Virus genome (UHGV): UHGV-0197631
Source: a virus
DNA length: 43,736 nucleotides
Strand: one strand, 5' to 3'
The notes under the pieces: generated by a model
The model's database searches: none
What the model was told of the DNA's origin: nothing
The model's input: the letters and a program-made list of their open reading frames with translations, nothing else
Made by a program: the position numbers and the translations under genes
Part shown: piece by piece, positions 22,059 to 31,283 of the stretch
Numbering within the stretch: position 1 is the first letter of the stretch
Layout: every line of letters starts with the position of its first letter

Positions 22059-22684
22059 GCGTTAGTTTCTCCACAGTCACGACACGCCACGGCGCCCGGA
22101 GCTGCACACTCGCGGGCGTCATTACTTTCTGAAATGCAAAAGATTTTGTAGACCAGTGCTGCATGCTCCTGCAGCTTCGAAATTGAGAGATACAGCTCGT
22201 CGTTAATTGCTGTCTGCTCGTGTGGCTCCACTACCCCATCTTCGATTGCCGAACGAATCTGCTTTGAGTAACTCCCGATCTGTTCGATGACTTCCAGCAG
22301 GCGCTGGTTTATATCGGCGTTCTCTACTTCCTCAATTTCAGGAAGCGATACGAACACCCCACCAGCAGACTGTGCGACAGCATCCGCAATGTAGTGAGTG
22401 CCAGCTGCGCGCTGTAAAACCATTGCCCATCCCAGCGGGAAAATCTGATCGCCATCGGCACGAAGGCGGTTAAATAATGCGTTCTCTGTTACATCCAGCC
22501 AGTCAGCAGCTTCAGCGTAACCACCCGGCAACGCCGCGATAGTTTTTCTGACAGCTTTCACGTACCACTCAGGCTGTTTTTCTACTTTCCAGTGATGCTT
22601 ACCCACGGTTAACTCCTCGTTTCTGTGGTTACGTTTACGCAACTGAACCGCTAACTTTTGAATAGCACTCTGGTAATCCATCAT
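22055..22684 (-). CDS. phage regulatory protein (CII/YdaT-like position), identity uncertain
   Basis: Long ORF downstream of cro; start tentatively at MMDYQ (ATG 22684); position corresponds to cII/ydaT of lambdoid and Rac-type prophages. Confidence 0.35.
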
Positions 22685-22898
22685 TTGGATTTGGATAAAT
22701 ATCAGGACGCAGCTCATGGGGGGTTACGGACCAGTTCCCCAGCTCACAAAGTTGTAAAACTCGTTCCGACGGGACTTGATTGTTAATTACCCAATTAGCG
22801 ACAGATTGAGTAGATTTAAAACCAAAGCGACGAGCTACTTCAGATAAAGACTTTCCCGCAGCCTTTACTGCTTTCTCGGTGTAGTTTTGAGATGACAT
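22635..22898 (-). CDS. cro: Cro-like HTH repressor
   Basis: 87 aa HTH protein divergent from the cI gene across an operator-containing intergenic region. Confidence 0.65.
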   Translation of the reverse strand: MSSQNYTEKAVKAAGKSLSEVARRFGFKSTQSVANWVINNQVPSERVLQLCELGNWSVTPHELRPDIYPNPNDGLPECYSKVSGSVA

Positions 22899-22930
22899 AT
22901 CTTTCTCCTCTGAAATCCAGAGGGGATAAT

Positions 22931-22968
22931 GCTACTTAAAGTAGCAAATTGCAACTACTTAAAATAGA
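22931..22968. promoter_or_regulatory. OR-like operator region (17-bp palindrome TGCTACTTAAAGTAGCA plus degenerate copy)
   Basis: Perfect 17-bp palindrome at 22930-22946 and related CTACTTAAAATAG 20 bp downstream, between divergent cro and cI. Confidence 0.5.
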
Positions 22969-22969
22969 A

Positions 22970-23710
22970 ATGACGAGCGTATGTGATGTGAGTAATCTTC
23001 TACCTATGGTAGAAGAACAGAAGTATCCAGATTTCGCCAAGAGACTAAACGAGTTAATGACAAACAAGGGAATTTCTGTCACCCAACTCAAAAGTCTTGT
23101 TGGCGTTACATATGAAATGGCGCGGCGATACACAATCGGCGCAGCGAAGCCTCGTGCCTCTGTCATGAATAAACTTGCGTTGGCTCTGGGGGTATCGGCT
23201 TCATATTTAGAATATGGTGTTGGCGAGAGAGAAGGATGTAAGGAAATGGCAAGCATCCCCAATCCAACAAAACCCGACGTATACAGGATAGAAGTTTTAG
23301 ATCTTAGCGTTAGCGCAGGACCTGGAACCTATATGCTTTCAGACTATGTTGATGTGCTCTACGCCATTGAGTTCACAACAGAACATGCCCGTTCTCTTTT
23401 CGGTAACCGTTCTCAGGATGATATTAAGGTTATGACTGTAAATGGCGATAGTATGTCCCCTACTCTCGTTTCCGGAGATCGACTGTTTGTCGACATTTCT
23501 GTTCGTCACTTCCAGACTGATGGAATTTACTCTTTCGTTTACGGTAAGACTTTTCATGTTAAACGTCTTCAAATGCAAGGTGACAAGCTAGCCGTTCTTT
23601 CGGATAACCCTGCCTATGAGAAATGGTACATCGATGAAAAATCGCAGGATCAGCTTTATGTAATGGGCAAGGCGTTGATTCATGAGTCAATAAAATACAA
23701 TCGGTTATAG
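22970..23710 (+). CDS. cI: CI-type repressor (HTH_XRE + S24 LexA-like peptidase domain)
   Basis: N-terminal HTH, C-terminal Ser/Lys dyad context (NGDSMSPT ... HVKRL); ORF opens at TTG 22949, ATG candidates at 22970 and 23006. Confidence 0.75.
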   Translation: MTSVCDVSNLLPMVEEQKYPDFAKRLNELMTNKGISVTQLKSLVGVTYEMARRYTIGAAKPRASVMNKLALALGVSASYLEYGVGEREGCKEMASIPNPTKPDVYRIEVLDLSVSAGPGTYMLSDYVDVLYAIEFTTEHARSLFGNRSQDDIKVMTVNGDSMSPTLVSGDRLFVDISVRHFQTDGIYSFVYGKTFHVKRLQMQGDKLAVLSDNPAYEKWYIDEKSQDQLYVMGKALIHESIKYNRL

Positions 23711-23725
23711 TTCTAAGGGCATATA

Positions 23726-24073
23726 ATGGCTAGTGAGCAGGGATTCGAAAAGATTAACATGGATATGTTGGTCTCTTATTTCTCAGAAAAGAATATATAT
23801 CTAAAATGTACACTATGTGGACACGACAGATTGACTGTGCCTCAAGTCAGCGCGAATGTGGGCATGCCATGTACTATGAAACTTGGTAGTTATGTGAATG
23901 TTTTTACTGAAAAAAGCATTTATTCTGATACTGCTAACCAGTATTACTTTTCACTAATATGCAACAATTGTGGAAATGAAATTCATATAAATGCGTTTTC
24001 AGTTTTGAACTGGGTAAATGAAAAGTTCCCAGCAAAAACGGAAGATGAAAAAAATGCCGACGCCGCAAAATAA
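23726..24073 (+). CDS. hypothetical zinc-ribbon-like protein in the rexA-equivalent slot
   Basis: 115 aa; two CxxC pairs (CTLCGH ... CNNCGNE); AT-rich; 16 nt downstream of cI on the same strand. Confidence 0.45.
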   Translation: MASEQGFEKINMDMLVSYFSEKNIYLKCTLCGHDRLTVPQVSANVGMPCTMKLGSYVNVFTEKSIYSDTANQYYFSLICNNCGNEIHINAFSVLNWVNEKFPAKTEDEKNADAAK

Positions 24074-24425
24074 TGTAGTACCATTTAATAGTGAACTTCC
24101 CACAATTAGAAGACACGGTGGAGATGGCGGAGGTGATGACATGCTTGAAGCCCGAGTCGCTAAGTTAGAAGCGAATGTTGAGGATATAAAAACAAATCTC
24201 GCAGAGATGAGAGCTGACATTCGTGATTTGCGAAACGCTCTCTCCGACACCCGACGCGATGTCGCTGTTATCCTTCAAAAACAAATAGATATAGATGAAA
24301 AGTTGTCAAAAAAACCTAGCCTAAGTGAAGTCAACAGCGCTATTTCATCAGCCGTAAATAAACAGATCGCATGGACTGTTGCAACAGGCTTGGCGATTTT
24401 AGGTCTCGCCAAATTTATGTTTTGA
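24045..24425 (+). CDS. hypothetical coiled-coil protein with C-terminal transmembrane anchor (rexB-equivalent slot)
   Basis: Start at MKKMPTPQ overlapping the upstream stop; central heptad-like region (LEARVAKLEANVEDIKTNLAEMRADIRDLRNAL); C-terminal IAWTVATGLAILGLAKFMF. Confidence 0.45.
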   Translation: MKKMPTPQNNVVPFNSELPTIRRHGGDGGGDDMLEARVAKLEANVEDIKTNLAEMRADIRDLRNALSDTRRDVAVILQKQIDIDEKLSKKPSLSEVNSAISSAVNKQIAWTVATGLAILGLAKFMF

Positions 24426-24756
24426 TAAGTTTTTGACTATGACCTGCCCTAGTTTTCTTACTATCGAGGCTAAATCACACAATCCATTGAGTAGTAAATT
24501 CCCTACCGTTTTACACTTAGCCTCCAAAAACTCAACAATACTCTCATGATTGACTTCTCCCCACTTGATGATTAACTAGATCACATACTGATCTCAGCCA
24601 CAATGAAACAATCCATCACGTTCTACAACTCAGCTAACTTCACAATATAATTTTTTGATCATAGCCCCCAAAATATTTTACCTGTAAATTCAATGAATTA
24701 ATTTCAAAATGCGTTTTCATGCCCTTAACTTCTACTTTTTGTAGTTGATTTTTGCA

Positions 24757-24773
24757 ACTTTAAGTAGCAATAT
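24757..24773. promoter_or_regulatory. OL-like operator copy
   Basis: TGCAACTTTAAGTAGCA matches the OR palindrome TGCTACTTAAAGTAGCA at 15 of 17 positions (right half-site identical), ~1.8 kb from OR. Confidence 0.4.
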
Positions 24774-24896
24774 CATTTTACCGACAACGAACAGGCAGGA
24801 CGCCCACGAAGTAGCCGCTTGGGGCATATGAAGTCCAGGATGACTCGTTGAGTCATGTTGTGCCACTAGGCACTCATGTTAAAGCAGGTGTATGAA

Positions 24897-25172
24897 ATGA
24901 AAGTCCAGATTTTAAACAATAACTGTGAAGTCGTTTGGTCATACGACATAGCCGCCCCTGTAGATCAGAGCGGCGATAGCTGGACCAATGGGAAACATCA
25001 GATTATGGCTGGAGTTGTGTTCTCTTTACGCCGTGCTTTGGAACAGGCTGAAGTATTTCCATCAGACCCTGAATGGAAATGGCCTTTTTCTATTTGTCCA
25101 AATTCGGAGAGCACATTTCAGAAAATTGGTCAGAAAGTCGCACTCGAAGAGCATCAGCCAACTGTTTCCTGA
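24897..25172 (+). CDS. hypothetical protein (first ORF downstream of OL-like operator)
   Basis: Start MKVQILNN with AGGTG upstream; overlaps convergent ORF 25090..25335, so one of the two may be spurious. Confidence 0.3.
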   Translation: MKVQILNNNCEVVWSYDIAAPVDQSGDSWTNGKHQIMAGVVFSLRRALEQAEVFPSDPEWKWPFSICPNSESTFQKIGQKVALEEHQPTVS

Positions 25173-25335
25173 TTTTTTCAGGTAACTCGTCGGCATCGCA
25201 GAAACAACAACGCTCGATCATGTTGAAAGCCGATTCGTAGAACTGTTTCTGCTGAGTGTCGCTGAGACAGGAAAAGAGCGACGTTACGATGATTTTATTA
25301 ATTGCATTATCAAGTTCTTTTTCATCAAAAGTCAT
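25090..25335 (-). CDS. hypothetical acidic protein
   Basis: 81 aa; AGGAAA Shine-Dalgarno 8 nt upstream of ATG 25335. Confidence 0.35.
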   Translation of the reverse strand: MTFDEKELDNAINKIIVTSLFSCLSDTQQKQFYESAFNMIERCCFCDADELPEKIRKQLADALRVRLSDQFSEMCSPNLDK

Positions 25336-25591
25336 TTGATTTTCCTTTTATGTATACGGGCTTAAAAGGATACCACCGAGCCTGAAGTGGTGAAAAGACA
25401 GGCACATAACAGCTAAGTATTTTCAACCAAAGAGAATCCTTAGCGTTGTGGTGAATGCGGCTCAGCGCACGCGGGTTAAGGTTGAGGCTGACAGTCGACC
25501 TTCTGTGGATACCCACCCGCCTGGTGTGCAACCTTCGCCAGGCACCGGGAGGCACCCGGCACCACAACTTTATGCTGTGTGTAGTCTTGGC

Positions 25592-25635
25592 GGTACCAGC
25601 TTGTACCCTTGCTTCCGGCTGGTACCGTCCTTTTT
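25592..25635 (+). terminator. intrinsic terminator-like hairpin in PL-side operon
   Basis: GGTACCAGC ...17 nt... GCTGGTACC perfect 9-bp stem followed by GTCCTTTTT. Confidence 0.45.
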
Positions 25636-25723
25636 ACAAAACAGAGAAGAGCATCACCGGACGACGGGCTCATAACCCAATCCATCCGGGCGGCAGTCAC
25701 CGCAGGTGTTCTTCTCTGTTTTG
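25636..25723. repeat. perfect 15-bp inverted repeat enclosing 58 nt (ACAAAACAGAGAAGA ... TCTTCTCTGTTTTGT)
   Basis: Read directly from sequence; lies in a GC-rich non-coding block 25340-25754. Confidence 0.6.
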
Positions 25724-25772
25724 TGGAGAAACTAACCGACCTTGCAGGGTCGATATGATGAGGAGCAGCAAA

Positions 25773-26135
25773 ATGGCTAGCGAACGCAGTACTGATGTGC
25801 AGGCATTTATCGGGGAGCTGGACGGCGGCGTATTTGAAACCAAAATCGGCGCAGTTCTCAGTGAAGTCGCTTCCGGTGTGATGAACACGAAAACCAAAGG
25901 TAAGGTCTCACTCAACCTGGAAATCGAACCGTTTGATGAGAACCGAGTGAAAATCAAACACAAACTCTCATATGTTCGCCCGACTAACCGCGGGAAAATT
26001 TCCGAAGAAGACACCACCGAAACGCCGATGTATGTCAATCGCGGTGGTCGCCTGACTATTCTGCAGGAAGACCAGGGACAGTTACTGACTCTTGCCGGTG
26101 AACCTGACGGAAAACTCCGCGCAGCAGGTCGTTAA
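25773..26135 (+). CDS. hypothetical prophage protein (YfdP-like position)
   Basis: 120 aa from MASERS with AGGAG Shine-Dalgarno 8 nt upstream; the longer upstream extension of the ORF is not protein-like. Confidence 0.55.
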   Translation: MASERSTDVQAFIGELDGGVFETKIGAVLSEVASGVMNTKTKGKVSLNLEIEPFDENRVKIKHKLSYVRPTNRGKISEEDTTETPMYVNRGGRLTILQEDQGQLLTLAGEPDGKLRAAGR

Positions 26136-26200
26136 TATCGTTTTTAATTAACTGATTATTTATCTCATCACTGAATATCTTTATATAGTGAGGACTTATT

Positions 26201-27025
26201 ATGTCTCAGAACTTAGACGCAACCGCAATTAATCAAATCCATGCCCTTATTTCTGCTCAGGGTGTTAATGAAATTATCAGTAAGATTGGTGCCGATGCTG
26301 TGGCATTGCCTGAGAATTTCCGCATTCATGATCTGGAAAAATTTAATTTAAATCGCTTCCGTTTCCGTGGTGCGCTTTCCACTGCCAGCATCGATGACTT
26401 TACCCGTTATTCTAAAGATCTTGCAGATGAAGGCACCCGCTGCTTTATCGATGCTGATAATATGCGTGCCGTCAGTGTGCTTAACCTGGGAACTATTGAT
26501 GAACCAGGTCACGCAGATAACACCGCCACACTCAAACTGAAAAAGACAGCACCGTTCTCTGCTCTGTTGTCTGTTAACGGCGAGCGTAACTCCCAGAAGT
26601 CACTGGCAGAATGGATTGAAGACTGGGCCGACTATCTTGTGGGCTTTGATGCTAATGGTGACGCTATTCAGGCAACAAAAGCGGCTGCGGCTGTCCGTAA
26701 AATCACGATTGAAGCAAACCAGACCGCTGATTTTGAAGATAATGACTTCAGCGGCAAACGCTCCCTGATGGAGTCTGTCGAAGCGAAGACCAAAGACATT
26801 ATGCCAGTGGCATTTGAATTTAAATGCGTTCCGTTTGAAGGTCTGAAAGAACGTCCGTTTAAATTACGCCTCAGTATTATCACTGGCGATCGTCCTGTAC
26901 TGGTTCTACGCATTATTCAGCTGGAGGCGGTGCAGGAAGAAATGGCTAACGAATTTCGTGATCTGCTTGTTGAGAAATTCAAGGACAGCAAAGTAGAAAC
27001 CTTTATTGGTACTTTCACCGCCTGA
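26201..27025 (+). CDS. DUF2303-like prophage protein (YfdQ-like, from memory)
   Basis: 274 aa; length and N-terminus [21 protein letters not shown] match my recollection of CPS-53 YfdQ. Confidence 0.6.
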
Positions 27026-27037
27026 TTTCATTACTGC

Positions 27038-27059
27038 AAATGCCCCTGCGGGGGCATTT
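27038..27059 (+). terminator. hairpin AAATGCCCC tgcg GGGGCATTT
   Basis: Perfect 9-bp stem, 4-nt loop, 12 nt after the stop of the preceding gene. Confidence 0.45.
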
Positions 27060-27152
27060 ATGGAAACGTAATTTACTCAATAATCGCCGGATGGTGAGGG
27101 ATTCTTTTTACCAGAATTCAGCGCGGTGCAGCGCATATACGTGGAGAACAAA

Positions 27153-27689
27153 ATGTCATTTATTAAAACTTTTTCCGGGAAGCATTTTTATTATGACAGG
27201 ATAAATAAAGACGACATCGATATTAACGATATCGCGGTTTCCCTTTCAAATATCTGTCGCTTTGCCGGTCATCTTTCGCACTTCTACAGCGTCGCCCAAC
27301 ATGCGGTTCTTTGCAGCCAGCTGGTGCCGCAGGAATTTGCTTTTGAAGCGTTAATGCATGATGCAACAGAAGCGTATTGCCAGGACATTCCCGCACCACT
27401 GAAACGCCTTCTTCCTGACTATAAACAAATGGAAGAAAAAATAGACGCCGTAATCCGTGAGAAATACGGGTTACCCCCAGTTATGAGTACGCCCGTGAAA
27501 TATGCCGATCTCATCATGCTGGCAACCGAACGCCGCGATCTCGGGCTTGATGATGGCTCTTTCTGGCCTGTACTGGAAGGTATCCCGGCAACAGAGATGT
27601 TCAACGTGATTCCACTGGCTCCAGGCCATGCCTACGGGATGTTTATGGAACGCTTTAACGAATTATCGGAGTTACGCAAATGCGCATGA
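27153..27689 (+). CDS. HD-domain phosphohydrolase (YfdR-like 5'-deoxynucleotidase family)
   Basis: H...HD motif (RFAGHL ... LMHDATEAY) and further D residues; start at MSFIKTF. Confidence 0.6.
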   Translation: MSFIKTFSGKHFYYDRINKDDIDINDIAVSLSNICRFAGHLSHFYSVAQHAVLCSQLVPQEFAFEALMHDATEAYCQDIPAPLKRLLPDYKQMEEKIDAVIREKYGLPPVMSTPVKYADLIMLATERRDLGLDDGSFWPVLEGIPATEMFNVIPLAPGHAYGMFMERFNELSELRKCA

Positions 27690-28042
27690 ATGTTTTCGAA
27701 ATGGAAGGGTTTCTTCGTGGGAGATGTGTACCGCGAGATCTGAAAGTGAATGAAACGGATGCTGAATACCTAGTGCGTAAATTCGATGCGCTTGAAGCTA
27801 AATGTGCAGCACAGGAAAACAAAGTAATACCAGTGTCAACTGAACTGCCACCAGCAAATGAAAGTGTTTTGTTATTCGATGCTAACGGAGAAGGCTGGCT
27901 AATTGGCTGGCGTTCTCTCTGGTACACCTGGGGACAAAAAGAAACCGGAGAATGGCAGTGGACATTTCAGGTCGGGGACCTTGAAAACGTCAATATCACT
28001 CACTGGGCAGTAATGCCAAAAGCACCGGAGGCTGGAGCATAA
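27680..28042 (+). CDS. hypothetical prophage protein (YfdS/DUF551-like position)
   Basis: 120 aa, Trp-rich C-terminus; overlaps neighbours by 10 and 1 nt. Confidence 0.45.
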   Translation: MRMNVFEMEGFLRGRCVPRDLKVNETDAEYLVRKFDALEAKCAAQENKVIPVSTELPPANESVLLFDANGEGWLIGWRSLWYTWGQKETGEWQWTFQVGDLENVNITHWAVMPKAPEAGA

Positions 28043-28347
28043 TGACCACTTTTACCGACAAAGAACTGATTAAAGAAATTAAAGAGCGTATCAGCAGCCT
28101 TGACGTGCGAGACGATATTGAGCGCCGTGCTTATGAAATCGCACTCCTATCTCTGGAAGTAGAACCAGATGAACGCGAAGCTTATGAATTATTCATGGAA
28201 AAGCGTTTTGGTGACTTAGTAGATCGTCGGAGAGCAAAAAACGGCGATAACGAATACATGGCATGGAATATGACTCTCGGTTGGATCGTCTGGCAGCAAC
28301 GAGCTGGTATCCATTTCTCAAAAATCTCACAGCAAGAGGTGAAATAA
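28042..28347 (+). CDS. hypothetical prophage protein (YfdT-like position)
   Basis: 101 aa; translationally coupled. Confidence 0.45.
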   Translation: MTTFTDKELIKEIKERISSLDVRDDIERRAYEIALLSLEVEPDEREAYELFMEKRFGDLVDRRRAKNGDNEYMAWNMTLGWIVWQQRAGIHFSKISQQEVK

Positions 28348-28697
28348 TGGAGCCATACAGCCTCACACTCGATGAGGCCTGTCATTTTCTCAAGATATCC
28401 AGACCGACTGCCATTAACTGGATACGCACAGGGCGTCTTCAGGCAACACGCAAAGATCCCACTAAGAATAAATCTCCTTACCTCACAACACGACAAGCCT
28501 GCATTGCGGCTCTTCAGTCTCCGCTGCATACTGTCCAGGTGAGCGCGGGTGATGGCATAACAGAGGAAAGAAAATGTCACTCTTCCGCAGAGGTGAAATA
28601 TGGTACGCCAGTTTCACATTGCCGAACGGTAAAAGATTTAAACAGTCTCTTGGAACAAAGGACAAAAGGCAGGCGACAGAACTCCATGACAAGCTAA
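28347..28697 (+). CDS. xis: excisionase-like HTH protein (Xis)
   Basis: [33 protein letters not shown] is an HTH_17/AlpA-Xis type motif; AGAGGTG Shine-Dalgarno upstream; ORF overlaps the int start, so the true C-terminus is uncertain. Confidence 0.5.
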
Positions 28698-29737
28698 AGG
28701 CTGAAGCATGGCGGGTCAGCAAACTTGGTGAAATACCTGATATAACGTTCGAGGAAGCGTGTGTCAGGTGGCTTGAAGAGAAAGCACATAAAAAATCACT
28801 GGACGATGACAAAAGCCGGATCGGATTCTGGCTTCAACATTTCGCAGGAATGCAACTAAGAGACATTACTGAATCAAAAATTTATTCAGCAATGCAGAAA
28901 ATGACGAACCGGCGTCATGAGGAAAACTGGAAACTCAGGGCAGAAGCATGCAGAAAAAAAGGGAAACCTGTTCCAGAATACACGCCAAAACCAGCGTCCG
29001 TTGCAACGAAGGCTACGCATCTTTCATTTATAAAGGCCCTACTAAGAGCCGCAGAGCGTGAATGGAAAATGCTGGATAAGGCACCAATTATTAAAGTGCC
29101 TCAACCAAAGAATAAACGGATCCGCTGGCTGGAGCCCCATGAAGCACAAAGGCTGATTGATGAATGTCCGGAGCCATTAAAGTCTGTTGTTGAATTTGCA
29201 CTGGCAACAGGCTTAAGACGCTCGAACATCATCAACCTTGAATGGCAACAAATAGATATGCAGCGCCGGGTGGCATGGATAAACCCGGAAGAGAGTAAAT
29301 CAAACCGCGCAATTGGCGTTGCGCTGAATGATACTGCATGTCGCGTATTGAAAAAACAAATCGGGAATCATCACCGTTGGGTATTTGTGTACAAGGAAAG
29401 CTGTACCAAACCAGACGGAACGAAAGCGCCAACAGTAAGGAAGATGCGGTATGACGCAAACACAGCCTGGAAAGCGGCGCTGAGACGGGCTGGTATTGAT
29501 GATTTCAGATTTCACGACTTGAGACACACCTGGGCAAGTTGGCTGGTTCAAGCCGGAGTCCCGTTGTCAGTGTTACAGGAAATGGGAGGCTGGGAGTCTA
29601 TCGAAATGGTTCGTCGATATGCTCACCTTGCACCTAATCACCTTACCGAACACGCACGGCAAATAGACTCGATCCTGAACCCATCGGTCCCAAATTTGTC
29701 CCAGTCAAAAAATAAGGAAGGTACAAATGATGTGTAA
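28574..29737 (+). CDS. int: tyrosine integrase (lambda-type)
   Basis: 387 aa; catalytic-region motifs ([10 protein letters not shown] ... RRYAHL); ends 14 nt before the tRNA-Thr-derived att core. Confidence 0.85.
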
Positions 29738-29751
29738 CTTATTGATTTAAA

Positions 29752-29800
29752 TGGTGCCGATAATAGGAGTCGAACCTACGACCTTCGCATTACGAATGCG
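29752..29800 (-). other. att core: 49-nt 3' portion of tRNA-Thr(CGU) (thrW-type), not a complete tRNA gene
   Basis: Reverse complement reads CGCATTCGTAATGCGAAGGTCGTAGGTTCGACTCCTATTATCGGCACCA (anticodon loop with CGT, T-arm, acceptor 3' end, CCA); D-arm and 5' acceptor half are absent. Confidence 0.7.
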
Positions 29801-29984
29801 ACGTTAATATACTTTCAACTGTTTGAATAGTCACTCTAAAACTCATTTTTATCATTATAAAACATACTATTACCATAAATCACCTATTGATTAAAATTGA
29901 CAGGTGTTGATGTTTATTCCCGCAATTTACTTACACCAGCCGTTACATTACTGTAAGACAGAAATCCTCAACTGGAACCAGACT

Positions 29985-31283
29985 ATGGCGCTTTCAAGAC
30001 AAAAACTCACCTTCGAAAGACTTCGCAGATTTACTTTACCGGAAGGAAAAAAACAAACCTTCCTTTGGGATGCGGATGTTACAACTCTGGCATGCCGAGC
30101 AACTAGCGGAGCAAAAGCCTTCGTATTCCAAAGCGTTTATGCGGGAAAAACCCTTCGCATGACCATTGGCAACATTAATGACTGGAGGATTGATGAAGCA
30201 AGGAGCGAGGCAAGACGGTTACAAACATTGATCGATACCGGGATAGATCCGCGAATTGCTAAGGCTGTAAAAATCGCAGAAGCAGCATCTCAGCAGGCAG
30301 AATCACGTAAAACAAAAGTGACTTTCTCCGTCGCCTGGGAAGACTATCTTCAGGAATTGCGAAACGGTATCAGTGCAAAAACCAAGCGTCCATATTCTAC
30401 TCGATACATTGCAGATCACATCAACTTGTCCAGCCGTGGAGGGGAAAGTAAAAAAAGAGGTCAGGGCCCAACCTCAGCTGGACCATTAGCTTGTTTGCTC
30501 GACCTACCGCTATCAGATCTAACACCGGACTATATTGCTGCATGGCTGAGTACAGAAAGACAAAATAGACCGACTGTCACTGCCCATGCTTATCGCCTGC
30601 TGCGTGCTTTCATCAAATGGAGTAATTATCAGAAAAAATATCAGGGAATTATTTCTGGCGATCTTGCACAAGATTACAACGTAAAAAAAATGGTGCCAGT
30701 GTCTGCGAGCAAAGCCGATGATTGCTTGCAAAAAGAACAACTCAAAAGCTGGTTTAGATCCGTGCGTGGCCTTAGTAGCCCTGTTGCGTCAGCGTATCTT
30801 CAGGTGCTTTTACTTACCGGTGCGCGGCGTGAAGAAATTGCGTCACTTCGCTGGTCAGACGTCGATTTCAAATGGGCAAGCATGCGAATTAAAGACAAAA
30901 TCGAAGGAGAACGCATCATCCCTCTCACACCTTATGTTTCTAGCCTATTAAACGCGCTGTCCGCAGCCCCAAATGCTGAGGTAAGTAAGGAGAATTGGGT
31001 TTTCAGAAGTCATAGCAAAAGCGGCAAAATTATTGAACCTCGTTCAGCACACAATCGGGCTTTAGCGCAGGCTGAATTACCGCACATTAGTGTACATGGG
31101 CTACGCCGTAGTTTTGGTACGCTTGCCGAGTGGGTTGAAGTGCCAACTGGTATTGTTGCGCAGATTATGGGCCATAAGCCTAGTGCTCTTGCTGAGAAAC
31201 ACTATCGCCGCCGTCCACTGGATCTGCTGAGAAAATGGCATGAGAAAATTGAGACCTGGATCTTAGAACAGGCTGATATTTGA
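29985..31283 (+). CDS. tyrosine integrase (P4/CP4-57-type)
   Basis: Start at MALSRQKLTFERL; N-terminal arm-binding-like region, C-terminal catalytic region (HGLRRSFGT ... HY); second integrase abutting the same att core. Confidence 0.8.
   Translation: MALSRQKLTFERLRRFTLPEGKKQTFLWDADVTTLACRATSGAKAFVFQSVYAGKTLRMTIGNINDWRIDEARSEARRLQTLIDTGIDPRIAKAVKIAEAASQQAESRKTKVTFSVAWEDYLQELRNGISAKTKRPYSTRYIADHINLSSRGGESKKRGQGPTSAGPLACLLDLPLSDLTPDYIAAWLSTERQNRPTVTAHAYRLLRAFIKWSNYQKKYQGIISGDLAQDYNVKKMVPVSASKADDCLQKEQLKSWFRSVRGLSSPVASAYLQVLLLTGARREEIASLRWSDVDFKWASMRIKDKIEGERIIPLTPYVSSLLNALSAAPNAEVSKENWVFRSHSKSGKIIEPRSAHNRALAQAELPHISVHGLRRSFGTLAEWVEVPTGIVAQIMGHKPSALAEKHYRRRPLDLLRKWHEKIETWILEQADI

Follow-up and report, generated by a model that had tools for sequence, protein, structure and literature searches.

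Which function can be assigned to a gap of 437 nucleotides (nt), positions 25336-25772, that lies between genes of a viral sequence and yields no credible gene of its own? We addressed this question for the UHGV virus genome UHGV-0197631, of which the whole stretch of 43,736 nt (one strand, 5' to 3') is referred to as the window. The window represents an SfV-like lambdoid prophage, and the 438 nt used as query were 98.4% identical to Shigella phage SfV. A first-pass annotation, made from the sequence alone, had described the gap as a GC-rich element poor in open reading frames (ORFs) within the early-left (PL) operon. It had proposed either a structured RNA, i.e., a cis-acting antitermination or processing element or a small RNA (sRNA), or a protein-binding or recombination site.

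By comparison with SfV, e14, ST64B, 118970_sal3, phiES15, phiNP and about 240 viral contigs the gap was resolved into separable modules; it consists of five conserved RNA modules and is not a gene remnant. The prophage is best explained as a lambdoid prophage of the SfV/e14/ST64B type, with the gap being a part of the PL transcript that carries RNA elements on the + strand. The core of the gap is best explained as an sRNA cassette, in which a five-helix domain of 126 nt is followed by an unpaired seed of the RprA type and a DicF-like Rho-independent terminator. Taken as a whole, the element probably specifies a modular prophage sRNA of the Hfq type, which would be released from the PL transcript and mimic processed RprA, and, 3' of it, a structured leader of the genes that come next. 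Of the interpretations offered previously, structured RNA and sRNA were retained, while cis-acting antitermination and a protein-binding or recombination site were not.

A structured and non-coding gap

The GC content was found to be 0.555-0.58 over positions 25400-25699, compared to 0.39-0.45 in the flanks. The predicted + strand RNA fold of 25336-25773 had a free energy of -184.7 kcal/mol, compared to -138.4 ± 5.5 kcal/mol for dinucleotide shuffles (z -8.4; none of 100 as good), while the minus-strand fold of the gap gave z -3.8 relative to shuffles. The earlier description of a GC-rich stretch with hairpins was thereby borne out: GC rises, every hairpin lies where it had been placed, and the + strand fold exceeds that of shuffled sequences. 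That the hairpins belong to a structured RNA is further supported by three stretches with compensatory changes across related phages, including G-U pairs that are valid only in a + strand RNA.

The absence of a credible ORF also holds, with the caveat that annotation pipelines do call ORFs in the gap. In K-12 the homologous stretch of e14 is annotated as 'YmfH' (103 amino acids), PGAP called a 'frameshifted' pseudogene in a 99% identical genome, and PHROG 3651 matches a minus-strand ORF inside the gap. These annotations would fit a decayed or fast-evolving gene of the ymfH family, in which GC-richness and hairpins were incidental, and a decayed protein-coding gene was the outcome that the first-pass annotation had named as speaking against its own proposal. 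We looked for it by codon-position counts, indels and frame tracking. However, substitutions were evenly spread over the three codon positions (13/12/11 relative to e14 and 25/26/25 relative to ST64B) and showed no periodicity. The homologues differ by 1-nt indels and each has different long ORFs open, and the YmfH frame of K-12 is broken twice in the window, so that two frameshifts are needed to follow it. No Pfam family was found for the ORFs of the gap, and no reading frame under purifying selection, as would be required for membership in the YmfH protein family, was detected. Conservation tracks base pairing and not reading frame. The gap is not coding, and we regard a ymfH-family gene as very improbable.

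Seed, terminator and scaffold

The gap contains a stretch of 16 nt (UGCUGUGUGUAGUCUU) that coincides exactly with nt 62-77 of RprA as given in PMC5606850 and PMC7311995. This seed is unpaired in the predicted fold of the window. It falls within the most conserved block of the Rfam RprA consensus (AUUGCUGUGUGUAGUCUUU), with 16/19 contiguous identical bases in the window and 18-22 in relatives; the phiES15 homologue matches the block completely and reaches 41 bits on the RprA model. A scan of the viral contigs with the seed identified at least 120 loci, and the 124 hits were reduced to 87 distinct segments of 130 nt around the seed. The seed was invariant in all 87, and the sequence upstream of it fell into at least six classes. 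Relatives of class C have no STnc100-type domain and keep both seed and terminator. When 15 sRNAs were compared by k-mers to 2.3 Mb of loci, matches of at least 17 nt (up to 22 nt) were found for RprA alone and the 14 others were at chance level, the set of 15 reference sRNAs being small.

The region of RprA that pairs with rpoS (approximately nt 33-61, ...CCCCUGAGUGAAACAACGAAUU) is not found in the window, where ...CACCACAACUUUAUG is present instead, and a few relatives retain CAACGAAUU of this stretch. In three relatives (L095, L063 and L339) the match to RprA extends over 21-22 nt (ACGAAUUGCUGUGUGUAGUCUU), into the rpoS-pairing stretch, and is accompanied by a short GCCCGGG/CCCGGGC terminator. 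For these cassettes rpoS may also be a target.

Seed positions 25573-25585 were found to be perfectly complementary, over 13 bp, to positions -98 to -86 of the csgD leader, a validated RprA site for which the real leader sequence was used. Compensatory mutations in csgD CAGC (-90 to -87) and RprA GCUG prove this pairing, and the same RprA mutation relieves repression of ydaM/dgcM (PMC3465796). RprA60-105, which begins AUUGCUG... and is described as 'the highly conserved region', suffices for down-regulation of csgD (PMC3465796). A target in cis was considered and rejected; the sole other near-complement of the seed in the window has three mismatches and an untranscribed context.

A terminator-like hairpin had been reported 3' of the seed. 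It was confirmed, with perfect arms at 25591-25600/25618-25627 that extend to 25589-25600/25618-25629 when G-U pairs are included, and with U5 at 25631-25635. The base of this Rho-independent terminator, GGCGG...CCGYC-CUUUUU, is DicF-like. The Rfam DicF model matched weakly over 25576-25630 (19.4 bits, E 0.17), and one relative (L121) has 15 + 14 nt in common with the DicF terminator. Most of the 56 distinct sequences found 3' of the seed fold into a hairpin with a U-run on its 3' side, and about 12 different stem sequences are represented. An invariant unpaired stretch joined to a covarying terminator is the usual signature of a base-pairing sRNA of the Hfq type. Among the options that had been offered an sRNA is therefore the best fit, the conserved unpaired stretch being equal to the RprA seed.

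Upstream of the seed we identified a domain of the STnc100/PasD type. The Rfam STnc100 model (RF02076) was matched over positions 1-206 of 206 with 42.4 bits (E of 1.1e-7 in the local search and of 5.4e-6 when the entire window is considered). ST64B, 118970_sal3 and phiES15 have the same match in the corresponding position 3' of a cI-like repressor, homologues scoring 35-41 bits. Our own structure model, R1, gave 90.4 bits on the scaffold. The hallmarks of STnc100 were found at 25445-25568, i.e., the closing helix, the UGGUGAAU junction, the bulged-A hairpin and the CCGGG-AGGCA-CCCGG hairpin (covariation, 31-32 distinct sequences), as was the variable unpaired stretch followed by a Rho-independent terminator. 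Covariation was scored on an unfitted MAFFT alignment of 31 sequences at most about 90% alike, canonical STnc100 copies included, using a hand-drawn structure; RNAalifold on the raw MAFFT alignment missed the long-range helices, and the hand-supplied structure was checked with shuffle and slide controls. The scaffold scored 0.333, compared to 0.148 for column shuffles (0/500) and 0.04-0.16 for slid partners. In this alignment 7/9 pairs of P1, 3/5 of P2 and 2/5 of P5 were changed on both sides. The model-fitted alignment agreed and raised P5 to 3/5. The stem of P5, which carries the AGGCA loop, alternates between CCGGG/CCCGG, CCUGG/CCAGG and GGUGG/CCACC across sequences.

The 88 distinct sequences found 3' of the same scaffold core motif mostly have a different unpaired stretch and then a terminator. 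This agrees with PasD and STnc100 having a common fold and different seeds (bioRxiv 10.64898/2026.05.13.724894). The same domain also precedes other seed-terminator units in other phage contexts, e.g., 75 nt after stx2B. In one class of relatives (L015 5807-6013, L017, L029, L046 and others) an STnc100-type scaffold starts about 20 nt after the terminator of an RprA-type sRNA, which indicates that sRNA cassettes can be arranged in tandem.

A put-like or nut-like role in cis was weighed for the same domain. In the nascent PL transcript it would alter RNA polymerase, either by itself or together with Nus factors or a phage protein, and allow read-through of 25589-25635 and of later terminators to xis and int. 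The position fits such a role, being immediately 5' of an intrinsic terminator within the early-left operon. An N-like protein is not apparent, orf33 as the first gene after PL being without a Pfam match, and some relatives carry boxA-like UGCUCUUU/UGCUCUCUU 2-3 nt before P1. However, the boxA-like core was found in 14 of 148 distinct contexts and is absent from the window, which has AUCCUUAGCG where boxA (CGCUCUUA/UGCUCUUU) would be located a few nt upstream of the hairpin. The element is present as a single copy in the 43.7-kb window, with none on the PR side, and R1 reached at most 5.4 bits (E ~0.8) in HK022 positions 25500-30100 (L366, filters off), where putL and putR are described to lie. 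The class C relatives keep seed and terminator without the domain, and the domain is found before other seed-terminator units and even downstream of an RprA-type sRNA. The antitermination proposed in the first-pass annotation is unlikely.

The scaffold is preceded by module 0, a pseudoknot-like structure of ambiguous strand. In related loci it occurs in 42 distinct versions, helix B changing in concert from GCCUG/CAGGC to GCCCGG/CCGGGC or GGCC/GGCC, and in some relatives it lies directly 5' of the seed. In one variant (L061) pairing is possible on the minus strand only. Four loci (L003 ~1590-1670, which is 118970_sal3, and L011, L087 and L093) have two hairpins resembling tRNA T-arms (CUGGUUCGAUUCCAG, GUCCGUUCAAUUCGGAC) between module 0 and scaffold. 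They are absent from the window and may be tRNA-like processing signals.

A functional RNA could also be made from the minus strand. A transcript towards the ymfI-like gene (25335-25090) would carry CAAGACUACACACAGCA, a copy of the csgD target site, and could act as an RprA sponge in the manner of AgvB/AsxR. Module 0 and the minus-strand gene travel together, and the L061 variant would suit this strand. The most abundant e14 small RNA reported for K-12 (35 nt; Ghosal 2015, PMC4398507) is the exact reverse complement of the seed and the 5' arm of the terminator; it maps to L006 2702-2736, equivalent to 25572-25606 on the minus strand of the window, and is complementary to RprA. The library was apparently prepared from the small-RNA fraction and should preserve strand (PMC4398507). 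In addition, rprA falls 5.4-fold after AZT in a LexA-cleavage-dependent manner while e14 is induced (PMC11228462), which could result from e14-RprA cross-talk or from mis-assignment of reads over the common 16 nt. On the other hand, the constant companion of the seed is a + strand hairpin with a U-run, present in the majority of the 56 distinct 3' contexts, and in ST64B and phiES15 the seed is found without a minus-strand gene upstream of it. No minus-strand promoter was detected in 25336-25800 and none was found for the 35-nt RNA, the G-U pairs of the flanking structures would become A-C mismatches, and the read could come from processing of a sense/antisense duplex. Function of the minus strand is quite unlikely.

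The antisense RNA, which is the only small-RNA read found for the copy of the element in e14 of K-12, does count against a + strand sRNA of the RprA type, and so do the following results. The scores for STnc100 and DicF did not reach the Rfam gathering scores of 47 and 48 (42.4 bits and, far from it, 19.4 bits), and the RprA model (RF00034, gathering score 70) gave no match at E<=10 in 25100-26000. The U-run has only 5 nt and the loop of the terminator is large, which makes both termination efficiency and Hfq affinity uncertain. A consensus scan found no promoter-like site on the + strand between 24652 and 26500, and candidates picked manually were weak. Finally, the csgD duplex was moderately significant relative to naive shuffles (12/1000), and the argument for csgD therefore rests on identity with a validated site and not on energy. 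By its Rfam scores the element is a composite, outside any one Rfam family. It is located in a prophage operon and is not a core-genome gene with its own Rcs/Cpx-controlled promoter, as would be required of RprA proper. As no promoter of its own was detected, the element may not be expressed in a stable lysogen. The genes of e14, including 'ymfH', are induced by DNA damage in dependence on LexA cleavage, on average 36-fold across 17 induced genes (PMC11228462). This speaks for the homologous region being transcribed upon induction.

The leader downstream of the terminator

Module 3, a hairpin of 89 nt, begins directly after the U-run. The perfect 15-bp inverted repeat described before (25636-25650/25709-25723, enclosing 58 nt) was recovered and extends to a stem of 20 bp. 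We found 39 distinct versions of the module, all of them directly 3' of the sRNA terminator where the flank was included. The tip of the inner arm (CGGGCUCAUAACCC, 25665-25678) is identical to the anticodon stem-loop of the E. coli initiator tRNA-fMet, with three G-C pairs and the loop CUCAUAA, and is near-invariant in the 39 versions. A check of the tRNA-fMet sequence gave 100% identity and a median copy number of 4 per genome. The tip does not belong to a tRNA gene, as none was detected in the window by ARAGORN. In several downstream genes an AUGAG that coincides with, or lies close to, the start codon or the Shine-Dalgarno sequence is complementary to CUCAU of the loop.

The short hairpin that had been noted just before the next gene is module 4, and it was found in its place, 20 nt before the start codon of the yfdP-like gene. 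In relatives it precedes the start codons of different downstream genes, such as yfdP/sb37, xisE and others. For modules 3 and 4 together, 95% of the cells were paired in an alignment of 18 sequences at most 93% alike, compared to 43-49% with the partner slid, and covariation was 0.254 compared to 0.105 for shuffles (0/500). Pairs changed on both sides numbered five in the outer stem of module 3 and 5/5 in module 4. G-U pairs (e.g., U-G in 16 of the 18 sequences) indicate a helix in the + strand RNA and not a DNA palindrome.

These alignments bear on the proposal that the inverted repeats act at the DNA level, either in recombination or as an operator bound by a protein. The perfect 15-bp inverted repeat would fit this by its location close to the end of the prophage that carries xis and int. 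However, changes in one arm are matched in the other, which preserves pairing but not sequence, and several pairs are G-U in most sequences, which leaves the DNA repeat imperfect and the RNA helix intact. The cI operators differ in sequence, and the element is found in phages with different downstream genes. A DNA-level site is highly improbable.

The leader is probably a processing site with an RNase III-type stem, a translation-control module, or both. The 20-bp stem is a plausible RNase III substrate, and to this extent the processing element proposed at the outset is plausible as well.

The modules suggest the following course of events. When PL fires, on infection or SOS induction, a part of transcription would halt at the terminator (25631-25635) and give an RNA of about 215 nt. 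RNase E cleaves at the consensus RN|WUU, which AC|UUU between P1 and the seed fits. By analogy with RprA and DicF, cleavage at this site, or at another one, could release a processed-RprA-like RNA, of about 65 nt in the case of AC|UUU. RprA itself is processed by RNase E to its last 47 nt (PMC9262595; PMC6202311), which are an active isoform (PMC9262595). The prophage RNA would bind Hfq via its U-tail and pair with RprA targets, chiefly site Ib of the csgD leader and dgcM/ydaM, turning off curli and the biofilm matrix; the rpoS-activating region of RprA would not be part of it. Transcripts that read through would carry the leader, with the 20-bp stem, the tRNA-fMet-like tip, GGAGAAA and the UGCAG-loop hairpin, before whichever gene follows.

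Genomic setting, distribution and known systems

The features of the locus are collected in Table 1. The genes after PL are, in order and on the + strand, orf33, the gap, the yfdP-, yfdQ- (DUF2303) and yfdR-like genes, xis and int, and the yfdP-like gene is the first one 3' of the element. The order of cI, OL/PL, element and yfdP through xis-int is the same in SfV, ST64B, e14 and phiES15. The assignment of the gap to a PL-side operon was upheld by the operator-like palindromes and the PR-like promoter upstream and by yfdP/Q/R, xis and int downstream, all on the + strand. The gap is located approximately 0.6-1 kb downstream of the putative cI-controlled PL and begins about 0.6 kb from the PL start.

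Table 1. Position, strand and basis or description of the features at the locus.
Feature	Position	Strand	Basis or description
cro-like gene	22635-22898	-	Gene order
cI, S24 peptidase and HTH domains	22949-23710	+	Gene order
Two small overlapping ORFs between cI and PL	23726-24425	+	PHROGs 4293, 3556; weak hemolysin-like matches
Probable OL/PL	24732-24773	+	Operator-like palindromes CTACTTTTTGTAG; TGCAACTTTAAGTAGCA overlapping promoter TTGATT-17-CAATAT (24745-24773)
Module 0, pseudoknot-like	25372-25403	Ambiguous	ACCAC-cga-GCCUG-aa-GUGGU-gaaaaga-CAGGC; helix A 25372-25376/25387-25391; helix B 25380-25384/25399-25403
STnc100/PasD-type five-helix domain, 126 nt	25444-25569	+	Rfam RF02076 match, covariation
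Scaffold P1	25445-25453/25560-25568		Closing helix, then UGGUGAAU junction
Scaffold P2	25457-25472		Bulged-A hairpin
Scaffold P3a	25478-25502		
Scaffold P3b	25505-25516		
Scaffold P4	25519-25543		
Scaffold P5	25545-25559		CCGGG-AGGCA-CCCGG
Possible 5' processing site between P1 and seed	25567-25571	+	AC|UUU; fits RNase E consensus; by analogy with RprA processing
Seed	25573-25588	+	UGCUGUGUGUAGUCUU; identical to RprA nt 62-77 (16 nt)
Rho-independent terminator	25589-25635	+	12-13 bp stem GGCGGUACCAGC/GCUGGUACCGUC, 17-nt loop, U5; predicted fold
Module 3, 89-nt hairpin	25636-25724	+	Outer stem 25636-25655/25705-25724; inner arm 25658-25690; variable side hairpin 25691-25703
Conserved GGAGAAA	25725-25731	+	Comparison of relatives
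Module 4 hairpin	25737-25752	+	CGACC-uugcag-GGUCG; conserved UGCAG/GGCAG loop
Shine-Dalgarno GAGGAG	25760-25765	+	
yfdP-like gene	Start 25773; entry 25760-26135	+	ORF list, PHROG 204; yfdP in RefSeq relatives

The PL promoter was assigned by analogy from the sequence and escaped the consensus promoter scan. The operator sequence of the OL/PL region is also present between cro and cI (22925-22946), and the architecture of the promoter resembles that of TTGCAA-17-CATTAT on the PR side, adjoining cro. The operator palindromes TGCTACTTAAAGTAGCA and TGCAACTTTAAGTAGCA and the layout of the promoter are near-identical on the PR side (22925-22970) and the PL side (24732-24773). The consensus scan instead flagged TCTACA-18-TATAAT at 24622-24651, upstream of the operators.

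The ORF pair between cI and PL occupies the position of lambda rexAB, where SfV has no such ORFs, and may be an exclusion module expressed in the lysogen. Upstream of the gap, two convergent ORFs at 24876-25172 (+) and 25090-25335 (-) have 3' ends that overlap by 83 nt. Their homologues in e14 are ymfJ and ymfI, and each belongs to a PHROG family of its own (3195 and 3311); the ymfI-like ORF is antisense to the PL transcript and starts about 40 nt from module 0. At 29763-29820 (-), just after the integrase gene, a partial tRNA was found (Rfam model positions 9-63, 33.2 bits), with no complete tRNA identified by ARAGORN. This is probably a tRNA gene remnant that marks the attachment site.

Of 5426 complete E. 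coli genomes, 1689 contain the 81-nt segment of seed and terminator. Its annotation in the 12 records listed was 'hypothetical protein', 'YmfH' or none, and never a non-coding RNA. A sequence present in about one-third of complete E. coli genomes, including e14 of K-12, is annotated as a hypothetical protein or left unannotated, and behaves as a conserved structured RNA. Clear relatives were found in phages of Salmonella, Klebsiella, Cronobacter and Citrobacter, and further relatives in genomes of Citrobacter, Enterobacter, Scandinavium, Superficieibacter, Mixta and Erwinia. A scan of genome contigs with the 17-nt seed gave mostly chance matches in unrelated phyla and was filtered for a following terminator. 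After filtering, DicF-type GGCGG...CCGCC terminators were found only in records of Enterobacterales, with the exception of one record labelled Chryseobacterium. This contig (L288, Chryseobacterium sp. 18061) carries a typical enterobacterial prophage cassette, near-identical to that of Scandinavium hiltneri (L274), and is probably contaminated or mislabelled.

The literature found, which is incomplete in coverage, contained no paper that ties the RprA seed to a prophage sRNA, e14 or ymfH; an earlier description is possible, especially in Faubladier and Bouche 1994 (dicF-like prophage sequences). A 2025 review of phage-derived sRNAs mentions none of RprA, e14, STnc100 and csgD. The relationship to STnc100, the identity of the seed with RprA and the tRNA-fMet-like tip also go beyond the first-pass annotation.

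If the seed works as it does in RprA, prophages carry a copy of the targeting module of a host regulator that switches off csgD, the master regulator of curli and biofilm, and phage induction or the SOS response would be linked to control of the biofilm matrix. The locus is also an example of modular sRNA evolution, in which scaffold, seed and terminator are swapped separately, and this bears on the origin of core sRNAs such as RprA. As a tentative generalization, which we hold to be possible and no stronger than that, the early-left operons of lambdoid prophages in Enterobacterales could carry a mobile sRNA platform in which structured 5' domains and seeds are interchangeable and the DicF-type terminator is shared; a seed that is widespread is the functional 3' domain of RprA. 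Should this be true, the repressing arm of the Rcs/RprA regulon (csgD, dgcM) would be taken over upon induction or infection while RpoS would not be activated, and the conserved 3' half of RprA would share ancestry with the cassettes, in either direction. The tRNA-fMet-tipped leader would then be a second undescribed functional RNA, acting as a translation-initiation device or as a decoy for factors or nucleases that recognize tRNA-fMet.

Several known systems resemble parts of the element. HK022 put and lambda nut are likewise structured RNAs of lambdoid early transcripts upstream of terminators, but the element has no match in the HK022 early region, no copy on the PR side and no boxA in the window, and its domain is dispensable in relatives. 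AgvB and AsxR are prophage RNAs that interfere with the core sRNA network by sequence mimicry. They mimic an mRNA target and sponge an sRNA, whereas the + strand here mimics the sRNA itself, and an action like theirs would apply only if the minus strand were functional.

STnc100 and PasD share with the element the fold of the 5' domain (closing helix, UGGUGAAU junction, bulged-A hairpin, AGGCA-loop CCGGG/CCCGG and CACCA), followed by an unpaired stretch and a terminator, and are prophage-borne in enterobacteria as well. In contrast to them, the element lies in the early-left operon after cI and not in the late/Q/stx region, has another seed and terminator, and scores below the Rfam threshold. 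DicF (RF00039), from the dicB operon of the Qin prophage, is likewise an sRNA inside an operon downstream of a cI-type repressor, with an internal terminator that has to be read through for the downstream genes and with the terminator base GGCGG...CCGCC-CUUUUU. DicF is known to arise from the dicB operon by termination and processing by RNase III/E. Its seed sequences, which pair with ftsZ, xylR and pykA, include UUUCUGGUGACGU; the 5' seed differs by inspection, and the element here has a large structured 5' domain.

RprA (RF00034; the 47-nt form or RprA60-105) has 16 contiguous identical bases in common with the window, including GCUG of anti-site Ib, and up to 22 with relatives, and in processed RprA the unpaired seed is likewise directly followed by the terminator. 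The element differs in that it is not the core-genome rprA locus, nothing suggests Rcs/Cpx control, the terminator is unrelated, and the window is without the 5' hairpin and the rpoS-pairing stretch of RprA (ACAACUUUAUG compared to ACAACGAAUUG). StxS, which derives from the PR'-tR' transcript of Stx phages, belongs to the late operon, has another sequence, and copies rpoS activation and not the domain that represses csgD and dgcM. It is, however, a precedent for a phage-derived sRNA that is processed by RNase E and reuses a pairing specificity of the host, namely that of RprA, DsrA and ArcZ for the rpoS site.

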